This document shows, piece after piece, positions 15,599-56,848 of a DNA stretch of 64,000 bases (its first letter is position 1; the number at the start of each line of letters is the position of its first letter). Location of the stretch: NCBI GenBank assembly GCA_016188005.1, contig JACPIQ010000025.1, positions 1-64,000 of the forward strand, in the 5' to 3' direction. The DNA comes from Candidatus Rokuibacteriota bacterium (GTDB lineage Bacteria; Methylomirabilota; Methylomirabilia; Rokubacteriales; CSP1-6). A program made the position numbers and the translations under genes. The notes under the pieces are model-generated. The model saw only the letters and a list, made by a program, of their open reading frames with translations. It did no database searches and was not told where the DNA came from.

Positions 15599-16447
15599 GT
15601 GATGCCCGCCGACGGGTCCACGCTGCTGGACAGGCTCCGCGCACTCTTCCCCGAGGCCTCGACGACCAGTCTGCACCAGTGGCTCCGCGACGGGCGCGTG
15701 CGCGTCAACGGGGCCGTGAAGCGCGACGGGCGCGCGGCGGTGGGCGCTCGGGACAGGGTCGGCCTCGGCGCGACGGCCTCCCGCATGCCCTTCCCCGCCG
15801 CGCTCCGCCTCGTGCACGAGGACGCCGATCTCCTCGTGATCGACAAGCCGCCGGGCCTCCTCACGATCGCCACCGATCGGGAGCGGGAGCGCACGGCCTA
15901 CCGGATGCTCTGGAGCTATCTCGGCGCCGGGCGCCCGCCGCAGCGCCCCTTCATCGTCCATCGCCTCGACCGCGAGACCTCGGGGCTCCTGGTCGTGGCC
16001 AAGACCCCGGCCGCCAAGCGCATCCTGCAGGAGCAGTTCGAGGCCCGCTCGGTGGAGCGCGTCTACGTCGCCCTCGTGGAGGGCCGGGTGCGCGAGGATC
16101 ACGGGACGCTCGTCGCGCAACTTGCCCAGGACCGCGGGCTGCGCGTGCGCGCCGCCCGCGACGGCAAGGAGGCCATCACCCATTACCGCGTGCTGGAGCG
16201 GGACGCGGCCGTGACGCTGCTCGAGCTGACCCTGGGCACCGGGCGGCGGCAGCAGATCCGGGTCCAGCTCGCCGGCCTGGGCCACCCCATCGTGGGGGAT
16301 GCGCGTCACGGCAGCGCGCGGAGCCCCATCGGCAGGCTCTGCCTTCACGCCACGCGGCTCGGCTTCGTCCACCCGCGGAGCGGCGCCGCCATGCGCTTCG
16401 AGAGCCCCGCGCCGGCCGCCTTCTCCCGCGTCGGCCGCGCGCTATAA
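15599..16447 (+). CDS. RluA-family 23S rRNA pseudouridine synthase with N-terminal S4-like domain.
   Basis: An S4-like segment (LHQWLRDGRVRVNGAVKRDG) and the catalytic HRLDRETSGLLVVAKT motif, plus QQIRVQLAGLGHPIVGD. It starts 4 nt after the permease stop. Confidence 0.85.
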   Translation: MMPADGSTLLDRLRALFPEASTTSLHQWLRDGRVRVNGAVKRDGRAAVGARDRVGLGATASRMPFPAALRLVHEDADLLVIDKPPGLLTIATDRERERTAYRMLWSYLGAGRPPQRPFIVHRLDRETSGLLVVAKTPAAKRILQEQFEARSVERVYVALVEGRVREDHGTLVAQLAQDRGLRVRAARDGKEAITHYRVLERDAAVTLLELTLGTGRRQQIRVQLAGLGHPIVGDARHGSARSPIGRLCLHATRLGFVHPRSGAAMRFESPAPAAFSRVGRAL

Positions 16448-16766
16448 TCGCCGGGCGCGGGCGGGCGATAGCCCGGGTGCCCGCCAGGGGAAAACGGGAC
16501 TCCCGCAGCGCGATCGAGCAGCCACACGCCGTGTTCCGGCGGGCGCGGGCGGGCGATAGCCCGGGTGCCCGCCAGGGGAAAACGGGACTCCCGCAGCGCG
16601 ATCGAGCAGCCACACGCAGTGTTCCGGCGGGCGCGGGCGGGCGATAGCCCGGGTGCCCGCCAGGGGAAAACGGCAGGGGAAAACGGGACTCCCGCAGCGC
16701 GATCGAGCAGCCACACGCAGTGTTCCGGCGGGCGCGGGCGGGCGATAGCCCGGGTGCCCGCGCCTG
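16448..16766. repeat. Tandem array of ~88-bp units (3 full copies plus a truncated fourth; copy 3 carries an internal 14-bp duplication) filling the whole rluA-SDR intergenic region.
   Basis: Seen directly: CGGCGGGCGCGGGCGGGCGATAGCCCGGGTGCCCGCCAGGGGAAAACGGGACTCCCGCAGCGCGATCGAGCAGCCACACGC(A/C)GTGTTC repeated head-to-tail. The last partial copy runs into CCTGGTGAAGGAGG and then the ATG of the SDR gene. Each unit contains a GC-rich hairpin (GCGGGC GGGC GAUA GCCC GGGU GCCCGC). Confidence 0.85.
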
Positions 16767-16781
16767 GTGAAGGAGGCTTCC

Positions 16782-17573
16782 ATGGCCGCATCGCCGTTCT
16801 CGCTGGAAGGCAGGATCGCCATCGTCACCGGGGGGGGCCTGGGCATCGGCCGCTCGATCTCCCTGGAGTTCGCCCGCGCCGGCGCCGACGTCGTCGTGGC
16901 GAGCCGCAAGCTCGAACACCTGGAAGCCGTGGTCGCCGAGATCAAGGCGCTGGGCCGCCGCTCCTTCGCCATGGCGGTGGACGTGCGCCAGGAGGACGGC
17001 GTGAAAGCGCTCGTGGAGCGCACGGCCCGGGAGCTCGGGCGGCTGGATGTCATGGTGAACAACGCCGGCGCCTCCTTCCGCGCCAAGCCCGAGGAGATCT
17101 CGCCCAATGGCTGGAACGCCGTGATCGGGATCAATCTCAACGGCGTCTTCTTCGGCTGCAAGTGGGCGGGGCGGCAGATGATGAGCCAGGGCCGCGGCGT
17201 CATCATCAACATCGCCTCAATCGCCGGCGTCTACGGCTCGACGATGATGCCGCATTACGGCGCCGCCAAGGCCGCCGTCATCAACTTCACCCGCAGCCTC
17301 GGCATGGCCTGGGGACGCCAGGGCATCCGCGTCAACTCCGTCGCCCCCGGCCCCGTCGAGACCGAGGGCTACCTCGACGTCCTCCACAAGACCAACCCGG
17401 ACGCGAAGAGGACCTACGACGCCGTGGCCAACCGCGTGGGCATGGGCCGCTGGGGGCGCGTGGAGGAGATCGCCTACCCGTGCATCTTCCTCGCCTCCGA
17501 CGCCTCCTCGTTCATGACAGGGGAGACCATCATCGTGGATGGCGGCCCGGCCCCGCACCTCGGCGAGGGGTAG
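16782..17573 (+). CDS. SDR-family oxidoreductase (3-oxoacyl-ACP-reductase-like).
   Basis: It has a TGGGLGIG Rossmann motif, NNAG, a catalytic YGAAKAA (YxxxK) motif and PG. The ATG at 16782 sits 6 nt after GAAGGAGG. Confidence 0.85.
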   Translation: MAASPFSLEGRIAIVTGGGLGIGRSISLEFARAGADVVVASRKLEHLEAVVAEIKALGRRSFAMAVDVRQEDGVKALVERTARELGRLDVMVNNAGASFRAKPEEISPNGWNAVIGINLNGVFFGCKWAGRQMMSQGRGVIINIASIAGVYGSTMMPHYGAAKAAVINFTRSLGMAWGRQGIRVNSVAPGPVETEGYLDVLHKTNPDAKRTYDAVANRVGMGRWGRVEEIAYPCIFLASDASSFMTGETIIVDGGPAPHLGEG

Positions 17574-17676
17574 AGCGCCGGCCGGGACGGCAGTCGACAC
17601 GCGGCGCCCGGGGGGGGGCAGGGGGCCGGCCCCGCGGAACCGTGGCCCGTCCGGAGACGCTGCCGTGGGTGGCGAC

Positions 17677-18441
17677 TCAGCGTGTTCCGCGGGGAGGGGC
17701 CCCTACCCCGGCCGGCGCCGGCTGCTGTCTGACAAACTCGGGGTAGATGGCCGCCAGCTGCTCGCGCACGGGGCCGCGCAGGAGCGCGAGCTGGTGCGGG
17801 GTCGGCGGCGGGGTGACCGGCGTCGGCCGCGGCGGGTGGAGCGGGAAGCCCGTGCGGGCCTCGACGTCCTCGAGCGTCGCGCCCGGGTGCACGCTCGTCA
17901 GCTCGAGCCGCTTCCGCTCCGGGTGGAAGGTCAGCACGGCGAGATCGCTCACCACCTCGCTCACCCCGCCGCGGCGATAGACACTCGGCGGCGAGGAGCC
18001 CGGCGCCGTCACGAAGTCCACCCGCGGCACGAAGACGCGGCGGCTGTGGTCGGTGCGGAAGAGGATGGTGCGGGGGATGACGAAGGGGAGCACGCCCTGG
18101 GCCCGCCCGCCGGGAAGCCGCACCGTGGGCCGGGCCGGATCGCCGATCAGGCAGAGGTTGAAGGCCCCAGTCCCGTCGATCTGGGCGCCGCTGCCGAAGA
18201 AGACGTCGATGCACCCCCGCATGGCGAAGTTGTAGAACTCCTGCATCCCGCCGTTGAACGGGAAATGCTCCGGGCTGCCGAGCAGGATGAGGCGGGCCCG
18301 CGGGGCATGGGTCGCCTTTGCGAGAAGAGAGGCGCTGGCGGGGATCGGGGACACCGAGCCCACGGCGATGGTCTCCCCGTCGCGGAGGAGGCGGGCGATG
18401 GCGGCGGCCATCAGCTCGGCCGGGGTGTAGTCGGCCACCAC
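17677..18441 (-). CDS. CoA-transferase subunit B (glutaconate/3-oxoacid CoA-transferase family).
   Basis: 254 aa with ...LIGDPARPTVRLPGG...; it has subunit B architecture and length. It lies 3 nt downstream of the subunit A ORF. Confidence 0.65.
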   Translation of the reverse strand: MVADYTPAELMAAAIARLLRDGETIAVGSVSPIPASASLLAKATHAPRARLILLGSPEHFPFNGGMQEFYNFAMRGCIDVFFGSGAQIDGTGAFNLCLIGDPARPTVRLPGGRAQGVLPFVIPRTILFRTDHSRRVFVPRVDFVTAPGSSPPSVYRRGGVSEVVSDLAVLTFHPERKRLELTSVHPGATLEDVEARTGFPLHPPRPTPVTPPPTPHQLALLRGPVREQLAAIYPEFVRQQPAPAGVGAPPRGTR

Positions 18442-18444
18442 GGC

Positions 18445-19311
18445 TCAGCTCCGCGCCGCGCCGGCCGGCACGGCCGCGACGCGCTCGAGGTATTCCGCGT
18501 GGCTCCGAGTCCCGAGGACGTAGCGGGCCAGGTAGGCGCGCATCCCCTCGGCGCTTCCCGCCGCATGCAGGTACTCGGCGATATGGGCGCGGTCGTCGCC
18601 GTAATGTCCGACGCAACCGGTGGGGTGGGCGCCACGCGGGGCGTGGACCAGGGCTGTGACGTGGATGCCGGGGATCAGCACCCCCGTGTGCGGTTCCGCC
18701 GCCAGGTCCCCCTCCGACACCTCCTCCACGGTGGCGATGACGAGGCGGGCGGCCTGGGCGATCAGCTTGGCGTCCAGCCTCCCCCAGGTGATGACATTGC
18801 CTGCGCGGTCGCCGCGGAAGCCGTGGAACACGGCCACGTCCGGAGCGATGGCCGGCACCACGGCGATCTCCTCGCGGGGATCGTAGGGGTTCGCCATCGC
18901 GACGAAGTCGGGGCGGACCTTCATGTAGTCGGTCCCGAGGAGCCCCCGCACGGGGAGGAAGGGGACGTTCATCACTCCAGCCTGGAGCGCGGCGATGAGG
19001 GCAGGTCAGGTGTGCTCCCGGCACACGAGCGTGCCGGCCTCGGCGTGGCGGCGGAAATTGGTGGCGAAGCCGTACTCGAGGAAGGAGAGGCTCGAGAGCT
19101 CCACCTCGGCGAGCGCGCCTGCGCCGATCATCAGGTCGGCCACGAAGCCCGAGCTGGGCGCGAGGACCAGGCGGAGACGGCGCCGCTCCTGACGGAGGAG
19201 CTCGTGGAAGAAGGCCACGGGCTCCATCTTCATGTAGCCCACGTAGACCACCTGGTCGCCGTCACGCACCAGGCCGGCGGCCTCCCGCATGCTCATCGGG
19301 GCACTGTCCAT
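18445..19311 (-). pseudogene. CoA-transferase subunit A (GctA-like) interrupted by an in-frame TGA at 19006..19008.
   Basis: Track ORFs 19006..19311 - (N-terminal part ...FATNFRRHAEAGTLVCREHT*) and 18445..18975 - (...MNVPFLPVRGLL...) are in the same frame, separated only by one TGA. The read-through sequence FRRHAEAGTLVCREHT*PALIAALQAGVMNVPFLPV aligns residue-for-residue with the Acidaminococcus GctA segment FRKWFEAGKLTMEDYSQDVIYMMWHAAALGLPFLPV (recalled from memory). Confidence 0.6.
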
Positions 19312-19371
19312 CGCGGGCTCCCTCCTCGTGCCGGCATGGTATCACCGGAACCGGCCGCCCGGCCCCCGGCG

Positions 19372-19785
19372 CTATTGCCAGGCGAGGGCGGTGGCCCTGA
19401 ACCGCGCCAGGTCGCCCAGGCGCCCCGCGAGGATCCCGACGACGATCTCCGCGTCCACGCGTGCATACTCGTGGACGAGGACGTTGCGGAACCCGGCCAT
19501 GCGAACCATCTGCGCTGTCAGTGCGGCATCGAGCAGACCGGCCTCGCCCAGGATCTCGAAGGCTTCGGCGTAGGTGGCCGGAACGCGGAGACCGCGGTCG
19601 GCGATGATGTGACTCGCCACGTCCACGCACACCTCGATGGCCATCTGGAGGGTGCGCTCGACGATGCGCTGGATCTTCCAGTCCCGGCGGTACTCCTCGA
19701 CGGTGATCCCCCGGTACTCCGAGACCTGCACCAGGTACTGATCGAGGTCGGCGAGCTTGCGGAGGATCAGATCCGGGTCAACCAC
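19372..19785 (-). CDS. hepT: HepT-like (DUF86/HEPN) toxin of a nucleotidyltransferase-type toxin-antitoxin pair.
   Basis: 137 aa from an in-frame GTG at 19785. It has the HEPN Rx4HxY motif (RNVLVHEYARVD). It overlaps the 3' end of the upstream MNT gene by 8 nt. Confidence 0.7.
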   Translation of the reverse strand: MVDPDLILRKLADLDQYLVQVSEYRGITVEEYRRDWKIQRIVERTLQMAIEVCVDVASHIIADRGLRVPATYAEAFEILGEAGLLDAALTAQMVRMAGFRNVLVHEYARVDAEIVVGILAGRLGDLARFRATALAWQ

Positions 19786-20200
19786 GAGCGAACCGCCGCG
19801 ACAGGAGCCGGTGCTCCAGGACCCTGAAGTCCATGAACTGCCGGAGTACTTGCGACTCGAAGCGGTGACGGCGGAAGGGGTCCCGATCCAGGATGACCCG
19901 ACGCGTGCCGAGGATCCGCCCTGCCAGGGCCGTGGGCGCCATGTCGAGGACCACCAGGTCCACCTCGTCGGTGCCGAGGTGCCTGGTGAGCAGCTGGAGG
20001 ATCTCCAGCCGGGCGTCCGCCGGATCCGCTGACTCATCGACATAGACGGCCACGTCCACGTCGCTGAGGGGGCGGAGCGTGCGTGTCGCGGCGCTCCCGA
20101 AGAGGTACGCAAAGACGACGGCCGGGCAGGCCTCCAGCGTCCGACCCAGTGTGTGGAGCCGCGACTGGATGTCCGCCGGGAGGGGCTTCGCGCGAATCAT
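19778..20200 (-). CDS. mntA: MNT-type nucleotidyltransferase antitoxin.
   Basis: A GSAATRTLRPLSDVDVAV motif (GSx10-13SDxD). The start is the ATG at 20200 (MIRAKPLP...); an alternative ATG lies at 20230. Confidence 0.7.
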   Translation of the reverse strand: MIRAKPLPADIQSRLHTLGRTLEACPAVVFAYLFGSAATRTLRPLSDVDVAVYVDESADPADARLEILQLLTRHLGTDEVDLVVLDMAPTALAGRILGTRRVILDRDPFRRHRFESQVLRQFMDFRVLEHRLLSRRFARG

Positions 20201-20281: not shown

Positions 20282-21583
20282 CTAGCGGATGACGAAGCGG
20301 AGGCAGGCGTGGGCCTGGCGGAGCGCGGCCTCGGCCTCGGCCGGCGTGTCGGCGCGGGAGAAGATGAAGCCGAGATAGCGGTGCCCCTCGGGGAGCGGCA
20401 CAAGCTCCTGCCCCGCATGCGCGCTGATCGTCACGTCCTCCACCAGCGGCACGGCGCGGGCGGCGTCGACCCCTTCCACAGCCTCGAGGATGCCGGCCCT
20501 CGGGATGGGAATCATCATCACCGCCGCCGCGCGGCCCTCGCGCTCGAGCGTCTCGATGGGCAGCCCCAGCGCATGCCGCAGGATGATCTCCTCGAGGCTC
20601 CACCCCGTGCCGAAGCGTAGCGTGCGCGAGCAGAGCCCGCCGATGGAGCGGGCGGCGATCTCGAGCATCCACGGCCCCTCGGTGTTCAGGCGCAGCTCGG
20701 CGTGCACGGGGCCATCCTGGAGCCCCAGCGCCGTTGCGGCGCGGGCGGCGCAGACCTGGATGGCCCGCTGCGTCGCAGCCGGGAGCCGGGAGGGTGTCAC
20801 GTAGATGGTCTCCTCGAAGAACGGGCCGTCCAGCGGGTCCGGCTTGTCGAAGAGCGCCAGCGTGTTGAGCTCGCCGTGATTGAGGAGCCCCTCCAGCGCC
20901 ACCTCGACGCCCGGGATGAAGCGCTCCACCAGGATGCGGTCGGCGCCCTCGCCGAGGGCCTGCACCTCCGGGTCCGCCAGGATGGCCGCGATGCGCCGGA
21001 AGGCCCGAACGAACTCCGCCTCGTCGTCGGCGCGGATCACCCCCCGGCTCGCCGACAACATGAGCGGTTTGAGCACGCAGGGGTACGGCACGCGCCGCGC
21101 GGCGGCCGCCGGGTCCTCGGTCGCCGCGAAGGCGATGTGGTCCGGTCCCGGCACCCCGGCCCGCGCCAGCATCGCGCGCATGCGGAGCTTGTTCCGCGTC
21201 GCGCTGACGGCCGCCACGGGATTCGCCGCAGGGAGACCCAGTCGCTCGGCGATGACCGCGCCTACCACCGTCGTGACGTCGTCCACGGGCACCACGGCAT
21301 GAATCGGGCGCTCGCGGGCCAGCGCCTCGACCTGCCGGGCGGCGGCCTCGGGGTCGTGGAAGGGAAGCGTGAGCAGGTGGTCCGGGAACTCGCCCGACAT
21401 GACGCTGGGCCGCTCCGAGGCGATGACGAGATCCACCCCGAGCTGGCTGGCCGCCGCGACGAAGTCCTCGGTGCGGTAGGTGCTGGTGGGGATCAGCAGG
21501 AGGAGGCGCTTGCGCCCGTCGCCGGGCCGTGGGCGGCGGCGGCTACGCGCGGGACGAGAGGTGCGGGCTGGCTCCGGGATCAT
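20282..21583 (-). CDS. ATP-grasp domain protein (carboxylate-amine/L-amino-acid-ligase-like) with an Arg-rich N-terminal extension.
   Basis: An ATP-grasp pre-domain and core (VLKPLMLSASRGVIRADDEAEFVRAF...LVERFIPGVEVALEGLLNHGELNTLALFDK...HAELRLNTEGPWMLEIAARSIGG). I chose the internal ATG at 21583 (MIPEPARTSRPARSRRRPRPGDGRKRLLLLIPTSTY); the track ORF start at 21799 would overlap the tandem repeat. Confidence 0.7.
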   Translation of the reverse strand: MIPEPARTSRPARSRRRPRPGDGRKRLLLLIPTSTYRTEDFVAAASQLGVDLVIASERPSVMSGEFPDHLLTLPFHDPEAAARQVEALARERPIHAVVPVDDVTTVVGAVIAERLGLPAANPVAAVSATRNKLRMRAMLARAGVPGPDHIAFAATEDPAAAARRVPYPCVLKPLMLSASRGVIRADDEAEFVRAFRRIAAILADPEVQALGEGADRILVERFIPGVEVALEGLLNHGELNTLALFDKPDPLDGPFFEETIYVTPSRLPAATQRAIQVCAARAATALGLQDGPVHAELRLNTEGPWMLEIAARSIGGLCSRTLRFGTGWSLEEIILRHALGLPIETLEREGRAAAVMMIPIPRAGILEAVEGVDAARAVPLVEDVTISAHAGQELVPLPEGHRYLGFIFSRADTPAEAEAALRQAHACLRFVIR

Positions 21584-21652
21584 GATGGGCAGAGTCGAAC
21601 GTGTCGCTCGCAGTGAAGTGAGTTTATCATGACGCAACCGAGGCGGTCGAAA

Positions 21653-21841
21653 CGGGGGTGACGGCGCCTGAGATCGCGCGAGGAGACCCGCCCAGCGCAA
21701 CCATCCGGCGGGGGCGGGCGTGGCGACAGCCCGGGTGCCCGCCCCTGTGGGGGTGACAGCACCTGAGATCGCGCGAGGAGACCCGCCCAGCGCAACCATC
21801 CGGCGGGGGCGGGCGTGGCGACAGCCCGGGTGCCCGCCCCT
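21653..21841. repeat. Tandem array of two ~96-bp units immediately upstream of the LLM oxidoreductase gene. The 3' module is homologous to the 16448..16766 repeat units.
   Basis: GGGGGTGAC(G/A)GC(G/A)CCTGAGATCGCGCGAGGAGACCCGCCCAGCGCAACCATCCGGCGGGGGCGGGCGTGGCGACAGCCCGGGTGCCCGCCCCTG occurs twice, followed by GTGAAGGAGCCATCGCATG. Each unit contains a 9-bp GC stem (GGGGCGGGC ... GCCCGCCCC). Confidence 0.85.
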
Positions 21842-21858
21842 GGTGAAGGAGCCATCGC

Positions 21859-22800
21859 ATGCGCATCGGCATCATGATCGAGGGACAGGAGGGGCTCACC
21901 TGGGAGCGCTGGTTCAGGCTCGCGCAGGCCGCCGAGGATCTCGGCTACGAGTCCCTGTGCCGCTCCGACCACCTGACGGGGCTCGCCGGCCAGTCGCGGC
22001 GGCCGTCACTCGAGACGTGGACCTCGATCGCGGCGCTGGCGACCCGCACGCGGCGCATCCGCTTCGGCCCCCTCGTCTCCCCCCTCACCTTCTACCATCC
22101 GGCGCTGCTCGCCAAGATGGCGGCGTCCGTGGACGCGCTGTCGGGCGGCCGGGTCGACCTCGGCATCGGCGCCGGCTGGAACGCGTACGAGCACGCGATG
22201 TTCGGGCTGCCGTTCCCCCCTCTCAAGGAGCGCCTCGATCGCCTCGAGTGCGGCGCCCGGCTCATCCGGGCTCTCGGCGTGGGCCAGCCCGTCACGCTCG
22301 AGCAGCCCTATTTCCCGCTCCTCAGGGCCGAGAGCCACCCCCTGCCGCGCCACGGTCGGCTACGGCTGGTGATCGGCGGGCGGGGCGAGCGCCGAACCCT
22401 GCGGATCGTGGCGGAGTTCGCCGACGAGTGGAATGTGACGCGCGTGGACGTGGGGGGCTTCCGCCAGAAGCGCCAGGTGCTGGCCGAGCACTGCCGGGCC
22501 GTCGGCCGCGATCCCGAGACCATCACTCGCTCGCTGATGGTCCCCCTGGCCCTCGGCGCCGACCCGGCCGACGTGGCGCAGCGGATCGGCGCCGCCCGGG
22601 CCATCTTCCCCGTCCTGCCCGAGGACGAGGAGGGCTGGCGCGCGGCGGGCTTCCTGGCCGGCTCCCCGGAGGCCGTCGCGCAGGATCTCCGGTGGTGGGC
22701 CGAGGCCGGAATGGAGCGGGTCCTCCTCCAGCTCCTGGATCAGGAGGACATCGCGGCGCTGGAGCTCTTCGCGCGGGCCGTGATGCCCGCCCTCGCCTGA
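21859..22800 (+). CDS. LLM-class (luciferase-like) flavin/F420-dependent oxidoreductase.
   Basis: MRIGIMIEGQEGLTWERW...SLCRSDHL...GRVDLGIGAGW is the typical LLM N-terminus and TIM-barrel block organisation. It is 313 aa. Confidence 0.8.
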   Translation: MRIGIMIEGQEGLTWERWFRLAQAAEDLGYESLCRSDHLTGLAGQSRRPSLETWTSIAALATRTRRIRFGPLVSPLTFYHPALLAKMAASVDALSGGRVDLGIGAGWNAYEHAMFGLPFPPLKERLDRLECGARLIRALGVGQPVTLEQPYFPLLRAESHPLPRHGRLRLVIGGRGERRTLRIVAEFADEWNVTRVDVGGFRQKRQVLAEHCRAVGRDPETITRSLMVPLALGADPADVAQRIGAARAIFPVLPEDEEGWRAAGFLAGSPEAVAQDLRWWAEAGMERVLLQLLDQEDIAALELFARAVMPALA

Positions 22801-28483: not shown

Positions 28484-29412
28484 CTACTTGCCGAGCCGGC
28501 GGCGCAGTCCCTCGCAGGGATCCGGCCGCACGGCCGGAGGCGTGAGCCAGACGATGTCGCCCGTTGCCTCCCGCACCACCTCGCCCGGATCGTCCCCCGG
28601 ACGCGCCTCGAGCAGCTCGACCACGAGCTGACGCGTCCCGGGCCGCAGCGCCTCGAGCTGGGCAGGCAGGCCGCCGGGCGCCTGATGGCCGCGCCCGGCG
28701 ATCACCACCACCTGCGGCGCCTGCCCGAGCGCCTCGGCGAGCCGCCGGGCCCCTCGGCGAGCCGCCGGGCCATGGCCACGTTGCGCGCATGCCAGCTCTC
28801 CACCATGGTGGGGATCGCCCGCTCGGGCAGCAGATCGCAGTGCCCCTCCTGGATGCTCCGGGCGATGGCCGCCTCCCGCCTGGGATCGGGAGGGAGCAGG
28901 GAGGCGAGACGCGCCCCGTCCGCCGACACCGCCAGCCCCTCCCGCGCGATCCGCCGCACGAGGGCGGGCTCCAGATCCGTCGCGAGGACGCGCAGCCTGT
29001 GCTGCCGCGCCACCTCGAAGAGCGGCCAGTACATGGCGAAGTCCGGCCAGCCCGCCCGGCTCCAGCCGAGCGCGGCATCGAGCTCGGCCGGCCCGCCGGA
29101 GGCGCCGAGCGCCTGATCCACGGTGCTCTGCCGCTCCGCGGGCAGCATCTCGAAGGCCACGACCGGGCGGGCGCCCTCTGCCAGCAGGGCCTCGAGCACC
29201 CGGCGCTGCTGGGCGTGATGGTGGGGGTTGTCGTGCACCTCGCCGAGGTAGAGCACCTCGACGCCGCGGGCGCTCTGCGCGACCAGGCCCGCCTGGCGCC
29301 CGGAGTCGCCAGACAGGGCGAGCACGAGGGAGGCCGGGCCGATGCCGGCGGGGGCGGCGCAGGCGGAGAGCAACAGGGCCGTCGCGGCCAGGAGTCGTAT
29401 TTCGATTATCAT
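28484..29412 (-). pseudogene. ChaN-like (Tiki/TraB/GumN superfamily, PF04187-like) lipoprotein gene disrupted by a ~20-bp tandem duplication.
   Basis: The N-terminal frame reads MIIEIRLLAATALLLSAC (lipobox)...VLYLGEVHDNPHHHAQQRR...ARNVAMARRLAE and then frameshifts. The duplicated CCTCGGCGAGCCGCCGGGC sits at 28731..28770. Removing one copy restores the frame into ...ALGQAPQVVVIAGRGHQAPGGLPAQLEAL...CEGLRRRLGK, which is track ORF 28484..28711 -. Confidence 0.65.
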
Positions 29413-56550: not shown

Positions 56551-56848
56551 GTGCCTGCCCCCCTTCCCGCACAGGTGAGGAGCAAGCCTCGTGCCGGCCT
56601 TGAGACGCTGGCCCGTAGAGACATAAGGGGGGGTTAGCCGCCGCCCCTGCGGACAACTCTGGCGCCGACGCCAGGGGTCTGGCGCTGACGCAAGGGGGCG
56701 GCTGCCAGCCAAGATGCCGTATCGCCGCATCCCGGGGCGGGGGTGCCCGGGGGCATCGGGCCTTCGCCCCGGAGGTCGTGCGCACCGGCCGGTTCAGATC
56801 CACCGCCAGCACGCCGAGAAAGCGCCGGGCGGGGCTCGGGCCGCTCCG

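Follow-up and report, generated by a model that had tools for sequence, protein, structure and literature searches.

The stretch of DNA analysed here, referred to below as the window, comprises 64,000 nt of contig JACPIQ010000025.1 from a Candidatus Rokuibacteriota bacterium (assembly GCA_016188005.1). It carries two arrays of tandemly repeated, hairpin-bearing units, each ending immediately upstream of an oxidoreductase gene. Array 2 precedes a luciferase-like monooxygenase (LLM) gene that diverges from an ATP-grasp L-amino-acid-ligase-like gene, and array 1, ~5 kb upstream of array 2, lies between an RluA-type pseudouridine synthase gene and an SDR gene (Table 1). A reading made from the letters of the window alone (the sequence-only reading) had proposed that the two arrays are related leaders forming a regulatory device common to the two oxidoreductase genes. 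We found instead that the arrays are recent expansions, of the variable-number tandem repeat (VNTR) type, of a dispersed repeat and not a switch dedicated to two oxidoreductases, and that this repeat belongs to a previously undescribed, lineage-specific family of small interspersed intergenic repeats (MIRU/REP/BOX-like).

Array 2 consists of two units 5' of the LLM gene, as had been reported, although Tandem Repeats Finder (TRF) set their period at 95 nt rather than ~96 nt (21654-21842, 2.0 copies, 97% matches). Unit 1 contains, in this order, a GGTGAC box, a CTGAGATCG box, a purine-rich box, AGCGCAA..TCCGG and the hairpin, and it aligns end to end with family members of other genomes. The unit 1 hairpin is formed by a 5' arm at 21709-21719 and a 3' arm at 21737-21747, with an inner GGC/GCC mini-stem, a GACA loop and a GGGU bulge. 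In unit 2 the arms lie at 21804-21814 (5') and 21832-21842 (3'), with a G15/U16 bulge, an inner stem at 21817-19/21824-26, the GACA loop at 21820-23 and the GGGU bulge at 21828-31, and this hairpin folds alone at about -31 kcal/mol. The stable 9-bp stem of the sequence-only reading was recovered as nine perfect pairs, or 11 when extended with G.U, but its distance of 2-3 nt from the Shine-Dalgarno sequence (SD) was not: the core SD (AAGGAG) starts ~4 nt past the 11-pair stem and ~6 nt past the perfect 9-bp stem, and a GGUGA stretch immediately adjoins the stem. The 3' terminus of the array reads ...GCCCGCCCCTGGTGAAGGAGCCATCGC-ATG, the LLM gene starting at 21859.

Array 1 occupies the whole spacer between the RluA-type stop codon (16445-16447) and the SD of the SDR gene. 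TRF reported 16452-16761 with a period of 88 (also 101) and 99-100% matches, and the period of 101 stems from one unit with an extra 13-nt CAGGGGAAAACGG; in the third unit, of 101 nt against 88, this 13-mer is perfectly duplicated (CAGGGGAAAACGG x2, 16661-16686). A covariance model (CM) of the hairpin matched array 1 at 16444-16496, 16532-16584, 16620-16672 and 16721-16773. Only the last of these copies has a fully paired outer stem, the internal units being mismatched there (GCGCGGGC...GCCCGCCA); the last hairpin comprises a 5' arm at 16729-16739, a 3' arm at 16756-16766, a GGGU bulge at 16752-55 and an inner GGGC/GCCC stem closed by a GATA loop. The array ends in ...GCCCGCGCCTGGTGAAGGAGGCTTCC-ATG with the SDR start at 16782, and its 5' segment (GCAGCGCGATCGAGCAGCCACACGCAGTGTTCCGG) resembles that of two loci from other assemblies, L014 and L017 (L numbers denote loci). 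In both arrays the conserved GATCG box of the 5' segment sits within a small DNA palindrome, TCGCGCGA in array 2 (21674-21681, 21769-21776) and GCAGCGCGATCGAGCAGC, 78% complementary, in array 1 (16593-16610); these palindromes could represent a protein site or a methylation motif.

The resemblance of the two arrays is far beyond chance, since the six hairpin copies scored 53-70 bits with the CM (E 1e-9 to 1e-12) while the next best match in the window reached 17.5 bits, and since all six occurrences of the 15-mer AGCCCGGGTGCCCGC in the 64 kb fall within the two arrays. The six-copy alignment bears out the homology of the hairpin modules that had been claimed, with an invariant core C.GGG.GCGGGCG(T)GGCGA(Y)AGCCCGGGTGCCCGC, and in both arrays the shared module, ~43 nt long, does run into GGTGAAGGAG and the ATG. 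Likewise, the leaders were amplified independently, as had been inferred: units are 97-100% identical inside an array, and the 5' halves differ between arrays.

Table 1. Features of the two window arrays and of related copies at other loci (CM, covariance model; TRF, Tandem Repeats Finder; SD, Shine-Dalgarno sequence)
Feature	Position	Strand	Basis or remark
Array 2, two head-to-tail 95-nt units	21654-21843	+	TRF, sequence
Array 2 unit 1, full-length ~95-nt family element	21654..21748	+	TRF, sequence, alignment
Array 2 unit 2	21749..21843	+	97% identity with unit 1; 3' end merges into SD
Unit 1 hairpin, array 2	21709..21747	+	CM match 21701-21754, 62 bits; inverted repeat; structure
Unit 2 hairpin, array 2	21804..21842	+	CM match 21796-21849, 70.5 bits; inverted repeat
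GGTGAAGGAG, SD from the element's 3' end	21842..21851	+	7 nt 5' of LLM start codon
Luciferase-like monooxygenase (LLM) gene	21859..22800	+	Bac_luciferase, E 2e-42
ATP-grasp L-amino-acid-ligase-like gene	20282..21583	-	Divergent from LLM
Array 1, ~3.5 x 88 nt; four hairpin modules, three 88-nt-type 5' segments	16448..16766	+	
Last hairpin, array 1	16729..16766	+	Inverted repeat, structure
GGTGAAGGAGG SD	16766..16776	+	5 nt 5' of SDR start codon (16782)
SDR gene	16782..17573	+	adh_short_C2, E 1e-61
RluA-type pseudouridine synthase gene	15599..16447	+	Stop codon 4 nt 5' of array 1's first stem
Tandem array, 3 x 93 nt	L053		
Tandem arrays, 87-nt period	L015, L051		
Tandem arrays, 128-nt period	L003, L057		
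Tandem array, 3 x 40 nt	L028		Hairpin only
Copy-number difference	L012, L064, L034		Two super-units in L012 vs one in orthologues L064 and L034
tRNA-adjacent antisense copies	L060:5279-5440, L066:3581-3714; L069:5979-6103		tRNA-Leu(gag); tRNA-Met
tRNA-adjacent sense copy	L046:3081-3230		tRNA-Ser(gga)
Subfamily B starts without SD	L037:5969-6030, L037:2380-2440, L048, L054, L055, L019		

We then took a census of the family by scanning its 21-nt core, GGCGAYAGCCCGGGTGCCCGC, against one genome per prokaryotic species. The core matched at 79 loci, 69 of them true elements in 23 assemblies; the other ten were chance matches in coding sequence without the 5' arm, found in Alcanivorax and other gammaproteobacteria, Streptomyces, an actinomycete metagenome-assembled genome (MAG) and one alphaproteobacterial MAG. 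Nearly all of the 23 element-bearing assemblies carry the label Candidatus Rokubacteria, Rokuibacteriota or Methylomirabilota. In draft MAGs the number of loci reaches 11-12 (GWA2_70_23, GWC2_70_16, NC_groundwater_294), and the long-read MAG MFD00962.bin.2.205 showed only 2 matches on ~1.9 Mb of long contigs. Genuine copies with 5' arm, hairpin and SD were also seen in three assemblies with other labels, an Alphaproteobacteria MAG (L002), a Thermodesulfobacteriota MAG (L063) and an unclassified one (L046), which could reflect mis-binning, labelling differences or horizontal transfer. The search with a covariance model that had been suggested as a check found further instances and stem covariation: model R1 identified 110 copies in the element loci, among them diverged copies not caught by the exact pattern. 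No CM match was obtained in 38 viral contigs (367 kb) bearing the 15-mer core, a scan that addressed phage carriage and doubled as a negative control for the model. No Rfam model matched at gathering score in the 64 kb, and in both arrays E<=10 returned only noise (Pab160, CRISPR-DR29 and similar, 10-19 bits); literature searches for Rokubacteria repeats returned nothing relevant.

A full-length copy measures ~90-95 nt. Its conserved parts are, from 5' to 3', the GG(T)TGAC and CTGAGATCG boxes, a purine-rich patch, AGCGCGAG-N-TCCGG, and the hairpin with CC(A/T)GGTGAAGGAG behind it. The flanks separate four subfamilies: ...CCCCAGGTGAAGGAG in A, ...RCCCTGWTNAAT(GGAGG) in B, a 17-nt CGAGCGAAGCGAGCCGC on the 5' side and GCCATGGTGA on the 3' side in C, and a 3' flank ...CGCTTATAAAG in D. 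Most subfamily-A copies at other loci have the same GGTGAAGGAG-bearing 3' flank as array 2, which is a typical subfamily-A element. In the hairpin itself the outer stem counts 9-12 GC-rich pairs. There is a GGGU bulge on the 3' side and optionally a bulged U on the 5' side, and an inner GGC/GCC stem of 3-4 bp carries a small, variable loop of 3-4 nt (GACA, GATA, GAGA, GCCA or GAA); the hairpin folds alone at about -31 to -33 kcal/mol. The family includes solitary copies, whole-unit tandems and hairpin-only mini-tandems, with units of 87-128 nt, or 33-43 nt where only the hairpin is repeated. Tandem copy numbers taken from metagenome assemblies are uncertain. Such arrays break short-read assemblies, so copy numbers, the window's included, may be unreliable; an N run (scaffold gap) lies inside the four-copy hairpin array of GWC2_70_16 (L006:3381-3549).

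The hairpin proved to be a real, covarying structure in leader position beside the ribosome-binding site (RBS), in agreement with the sequence-only reading. Across the copies, 86.7% of stem cells are paired, against 40-63% with slid partners; a variable pair of the outer stem occurs as G-C in 33, C-G in 25 and U-A in 9 copies, and diverged copies add the compensatory pairs GCACGGGC/GCCCGTGC and GCTGGGC/GCCCAGC. The RNAalifold consensus regained the outer and inner stems together with the bulge, and G.U pairs outnumber A.C pairs in the sense strand (35 vs 19), a hint as to the strand. The 5' segment showed no conserved structure, either by RNAalifold or by pairing across 25 units; a second, central hairpin suggested there by L073, L039 and L078 was discarded, being 50% paired across those units and absent from the consensus.

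Most copies are anchored to a start codon. In 71 of the 81 clusters a same-strand coding-like open reading frame (ORF; G+C at third codon positions, GC3, above 0.78) begins <=90 nt from the last hairpin, mostly 5-22 nt past the stem and with AGGAG or GGAGG before the start. The upstream side is loose: in 52/81 clusters the preceding gene is co-directional, with its stop 4 to over 300 nt away, 13 clusters lie in divergent regions, and very few, if any, lie between convergent genes. Even in divergent intergenic regions, almost all copies lie in sense orientation to the gene next to them. Multi-copy clusters are all head-to-tail on one strand, and the lone opposite-strand pair (L069) is split between two different flanking genes. 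At several independent loci (L014, L078, L033, L015, L018, L025/62/75) the TGA of the element, in the context GGT[TGA]C or GC[TGA]GATCG, is the stop codon of the upstream gene, so that the element makes up the entire gene junction of stop, hairpin and SD; in subfamily C the upstream stop adjoins the conserved 17-nt flank. Several subfamily B genes start ~6 nt past the stem without an SD (...CCCGTATAAATG, ...CCCTGATAAATG), with stop codons (TGA, TAA) abutting or overlapping the ATG, and one of these genes has a clear heptosyltransferase N-terminus (MNIAIIKLSSIGDV). Beside the tRNA genes listed in Table 1 the junction reads ..GCC(A/T)TGGTGG.., similar to the GGTGA after the hairpin at gene starts; these copies may reflect insertion-target preference or terminator use.

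The genes served in this way are unrelated, which is at odds with a device common to two oxidoreductase genes: the module precedes at least 56 unrelated genes in 23 Rokubacteria-type assemblies. Their 56 non-redundant proteins contain 95 Pfam families and include pyruvate:ferredoxin oxidoreductase (POR), NuoD, CTP synthase, IlvD, aldehyde/acyl-CoA dehydrogenases and solute-binding proteins. A regulator gene conserved near the arrays, which had also been envisaged, was not found among the neighbours. The sequence-only reading had further allowed that the module might be part of a repeat family unrelated to gene starts; it is indeed part of a dispersed repeat family, but of one that is tied to gene starts.

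The LLM locus itself was compared with 80 metagenomic orthologue loci (63-92% identity), 74 of which extend >=150 nt upstream. Most keep the divergent ATP-grasp gene and the GTTTATCA box (21632-21639 in the window), and the ATP-grasp start region and this box are syntenic in element-free orthologues. The element is present in L080 alone, again with two hairpins; this is the closest orthologue (92% amino acid identity) and the closest metagenome contig to the window (~92% nucleotide identity), in which both hairpins share a lineage-specific loop (CTGAGCGAAGCCCGGGT) and the first unit is truncated. The other 73/74 loci lack the element despite conserved synteny and have shorter, different leaders with their own SD and -10-like boxes, which speaks against a regulatory element dedicated to the LLM gene. 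Since L080 is the only one of the 74 loci with the element, the array at the LLM gene is a recent acquisition that replaced the native leader. It stands in the place of the native -10-like boxes of element-free orthologues (TGTAAGCT, GGTATACAT), and the replacement junction lies inside the SD. Copies are more alike within a locus than to their orthologous counterparts, a pattern that indicates concerted evolution or repeated re-duplication. One LLM orthologue without a CM match (L081:~990-1028) contains GGCGGCGGCCCGGGGTGCCCGGCGAGGAGGAGCG-ATG just before the start, loosely like the element's loop and 3' arm (GGCGACAGCCCGGGTGCCCGC..AGGAG), which could be a decayed remnant or a GC-rich coincidence. 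The GTTTATCA / CTATCA box between the ATP-grasp and LLM genes is kept with or without the repeat (L080, L088, L101, L115, L156), and its sequence on the minus strand, TGATAAAC(T), resembles an extended -10 motif for the ATP-grasp gene. Elsewhere, orthologous pairs were mostly from genomes too close for a selection test, the only signal coming from L025 vs L062/L075: between L025 and L062 the element is identical at 98/100 positions and third positions of the coding sequence at 88%, which hints at constraint on the element at this locus.

Taken together, we consider it probable that the arrays are local tandem expansions of a lineage-specific interspersed repeat family with a cis role at the mRNA level. 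The element would be co-transcribed with its gene and act in cis on the message. Having spread to many unrelated genes by some transposition or recombination route, it readily duplicates in tandem, as a whole unit or as the hairpin alone. Its 5' segment, with the GG(T)TGAC and CTGAGATCG boxes, supplies the TGAs that often serve as the upstream stop codon, and its 3' end places the GGTGAAGGAG SD 5-9 nt before the downstream start codon. Very stable stem-loops in such a position are known to insulate initiation regions and to hinder degradation by exonucleases, examples being 5' stem-loops and REP stabilisers. The stable stem-loop just 5' of an exposed, strong SD may thus insulate the initiation region, and may protect the cistron downstream (or upstream) of it against exonucleolytic decay or processing; extra tandem copies would then be by-products rather than a multi-domain sensor.

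Several observations weigh against this interpretation. Whole-leader folds of the two GC-rich leaders were not better than those of shuffled sequences (z -1.3 and -2.3), and minimum free energy structures of whole units at times break the canonical hairpin. Because the covariation variants track subfamilies, the independent compensatory events are modest in number. As for the route of spread, we found no terminal inverted repeats (TIRs), no clear target site duplication (TSD) and no transposase, with only 7 window ORFs scanned for the last. Moreover, the strong conservation of the loop and bulge points to a possible trans-acting factor, for which this interpretation has no need, and the hairpins that abut tRNA 3' (CCA) ends, antisense at three of them, fit a terminator or insertion-target role better than a leader.

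Other readings of the units were tried and set aside. An RBS occluder or RNA thermometer is rejected, because nothing sequesters the SD: the core SD lies outside the stem, 4-8 nt 3' of it, P(unpaired) of the SD is 0.30-0.61, and neither an anti-SD segment nor dedicated anti-SD pairing was found. Nor does the hairpin 3' arm turn to the RBS as had been suggested, this C-rich arm being already engaged by the 5' arm. The hairpin is not an intrinsic terminator either, with 0 terminator-like sites in either array region, no U-tract after the GC-rich hairpin and a 3' flank of CCAGGUGAAGGAG. Leader-peptide coding does not account for the units, as distances are out of phase and there is no consistent ORF. 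Integron attC sites are rejected as well, because the units are flanked by direct sequences and not by inverse core sites, and because the genes on either side are housekeeping genes in conserved synteny. The arrays differ from CRISPR arrays in that the segments between hairpins are not unique spacers but are themselves repeated at 97-100% identity.

A dedicated regulatory RNA, in which the hairpin is the site for an RNA-binding protein, a small RNA or a ligand within a large post-transcriptional regulon, and in which tandem hairpins bind cooperatively or make loop-loop contacts via the self-complementary CCCGGG, is in our view unlikely. The loop and bulge GGCGAYAGCCCGGGU are conserved beyond the needs of a mere hairpin, even in copies found only by the CM, so that a protein-binding hairpin may still be considered; the sense orientation, the fixed closeness to the start codon, the frequent hairpin-only tandems and the conservation of the element above synonymous sites at one orthologous locus point the same way. 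However, the target genes lack functional coherence, conservation takes in the unstructured flanks too (85-98% identity), a trait of young repeats and not of old aptamers, 73/74 LLM orthologues do without the element, no neighbouring gene is conserved, Rfam gave no match even at E<=10, and with the SD unsequestered there is no obvious switch; in its lack of a curated model, a coherent gene set and orthologue conservation the family is unlike riboswitches and Rfam cis-regulatory RNAs. We would regard as similarly improbable a wider version, in which the element is a portable junction and initiation cassette before dozens of housekeeping genes, its loop and bulge being read by a trans-acting factor for phylum-specific, global post-transcriptional control, with tandems tuning the dose or cooperating through CCCGGG loop-loop contacts.

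The element might instead live at the DNA level, as a selfish or neutral REP/PATE-like repeat whose single-stranded DNA hairpin is recognised by a transposase or recombinase preferring GGTGA-like targets, namely SD regions and tRNA CCA ends. Its position at gene junctions would then reflect target choice and tolerance, not host function, and it may incidentally be a terminator. The patchy, lineage-restricted and uneven distribution (11-12 loci in some draft MAGs vs 2 on ~1.9 Mb), filled and empty orthologous sites and head-to-tail arrays agree with this explanation, and covariation is equally expected of a single-stranded DNA hairpin. The GGTGA-like sequence at both unit ends and at tRNA junctions (TGGTG), together with the tRNA-adjacent copies, does suggest a target-specific insertion mechanism. 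We nevertheless give a purely selfish origin of the pattern a low probability: nearly every copy is sense to its adjacent gene even in divergent regions, inverted doublets (BIME/REPIN), the GTAG/CGTC tag and TIRs are lacking, the functional-looking SD and stops used by flanking genes mean that the repeat is not neutral where located, and there is no U-tract for intrinsic termination. A portable promoter, with a TTGAC-type -35 and a purine-rich -10-like box in the 5' segment and tandem units as stacked promoters, seems very unlikely. The family does fall under the definition of putative mobile promoters (PMPs; PMC3488235), many units start with GGTTGAC, some have TAGAAT, GAGAAT or GAAAAT 16-18 nt downstream, and the array took the place of native -10-like boxes (TGTAAGCT, GGTATACAT) at the LLM locus. 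Yet a scan with the sigma-70 consensus found no promoter in either array, the window's -10 position is AGGAGA, without the key A2/T6, most copies lie in short co-directional spacers where a promoter is not needed, and hairpin-only copies have no 5' segment at all; sigma-54 and extracytoplasmic function (ECF)-like readings of the boxes also fitted poorly by eye.

The closest analogue of the family is the mycobacterial interspersed repetitive unit (MIRU; Supply et al. 1997, summarised in PMC3184786). MIRUs occupy some tens of loci as tandem units of 40-100 bp with variable copy number; they lie between co-directional genes, in the orientation of transcription, and are co-transcribed with them. 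Their internal inverted repeats are GC-rich, their ends overlap the neighbouring genes, and a relative lacks them at orthologous sites (PMC3184786). Our family likewise forms dispersed tandem units with variable copy number at orthologous loci (69 loci), lies sense-oriented in co-directional spacers (52/81 clusters) with ends overlapping the flanking genes, contains GC-rich internal inverted repeats and leaves empty orthologous sites in relatives. The two have no sequence relationship and belong to different phyla, and MIRUs hold small in-phase ORFs for translational coupling (PMC3184786), whereas the window's units of 88 and 95 nt are not multiples of 3 and hairpin-to-ATG distances are not constant modulo 3. 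No ORF of array 1 ends at the SDR start, and subfamily B lacks a defined start for an upstream ORF. One dominant covarying hairpin, a conserved loop and an explicit SD further distinguish the Rokubacteria family from MIRUs.

Repetitive extragenic palindromic (REP) sequences and bacterial interspersed mosaic elements (BIMEs) share with our family a short, GC-rich extragenic palindrome with compensatory changes, intercistronic and clustered. REPs occur in both orientations, typically as inverted doublets, are associated with RAYTs and stabilise mRNA segments. The Rokubacteria elements are direct repeats only, without inverted doublets, keep to one strict orientation, are anchored to start codons and carry a 60-nt non-palindromic 5' segment. 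REP palindromes also have a GTAG or CGTC tetranucleotide tag at one end (PMC3733652), and the consensus CCGGCGGGGGCGGGCG(T)GGCGACAGCCCGGGTGCCCGCCCCAGGTGA shows no such tag at the stem foot. The definition of PMPs asks for 50-100 nt of >=80% identity immediately 5' of non-homologous genes (Matus-Garcia et al. 2012, PMC3488235), and highly similar sequences of our family do stand directly before genes without homology to one another, both inside one genome and across genomes. PMP denotes a bioinformatic category and no mechanism, however; the conserved features here are a hairpin and an SD, and promoter activity is not evident. BOX, ERIC and Correia-type repeats are MITE-like, with terminal inverted repeats and insertion in either orientation, and they are transcribed and modulate the expression of neighbouring genes. 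They resemble our family as modular intergenic repeats with stable structure and module copy-number variation (boxB), but none of them supplies the stop/SD junction that the Rokubacteria element does. Unlike miniature inverted-repeat transposable elements (MITEs) of the Correia/ERIC/RUP type, the family has neither terminal inverted repeats nor a clear TSD, only hairpin arms and small internal palindromes being found, and its unit ends (GGTGAC... / ...GGTGAAGG) are direct, not inverted.

Some further features of the window concern other sequences. The 762-aa ORF at 17539-19827, 3' of the SDR gene, has no Pfam match at E<=1e-5; it could encode a novel protein or be one of the spurious long ORFs that high-GC DNA typically contains. 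Two other tandem duplications, unrelated to the hairpin family, lie at 28732-28771 (20 nt x 2, 100%) and 56658-56697 (20 nt x 2, 90%), probably within coding sequence.

These results explain two striking tandem leaders without a new riboswitch and document a repeat family, of which we found no earlier description, in an uncultivated but genome-rich phylum. The covariance model and the anatomy can be used for annotating such junctions in Rokubacteria MAGs, where the arrays break assemblies and mislead start-codon calling, and copy-number variation makes the loci potential strain markers, as with MIRU-VNTRs. If the proposed cis role is true, the element would be a natural, reusable intercistronic module of stop, hairpin and SD that has rewired the initiation regions of many genes, with a bearing on operon evolution and on insulators for synthetic biology.

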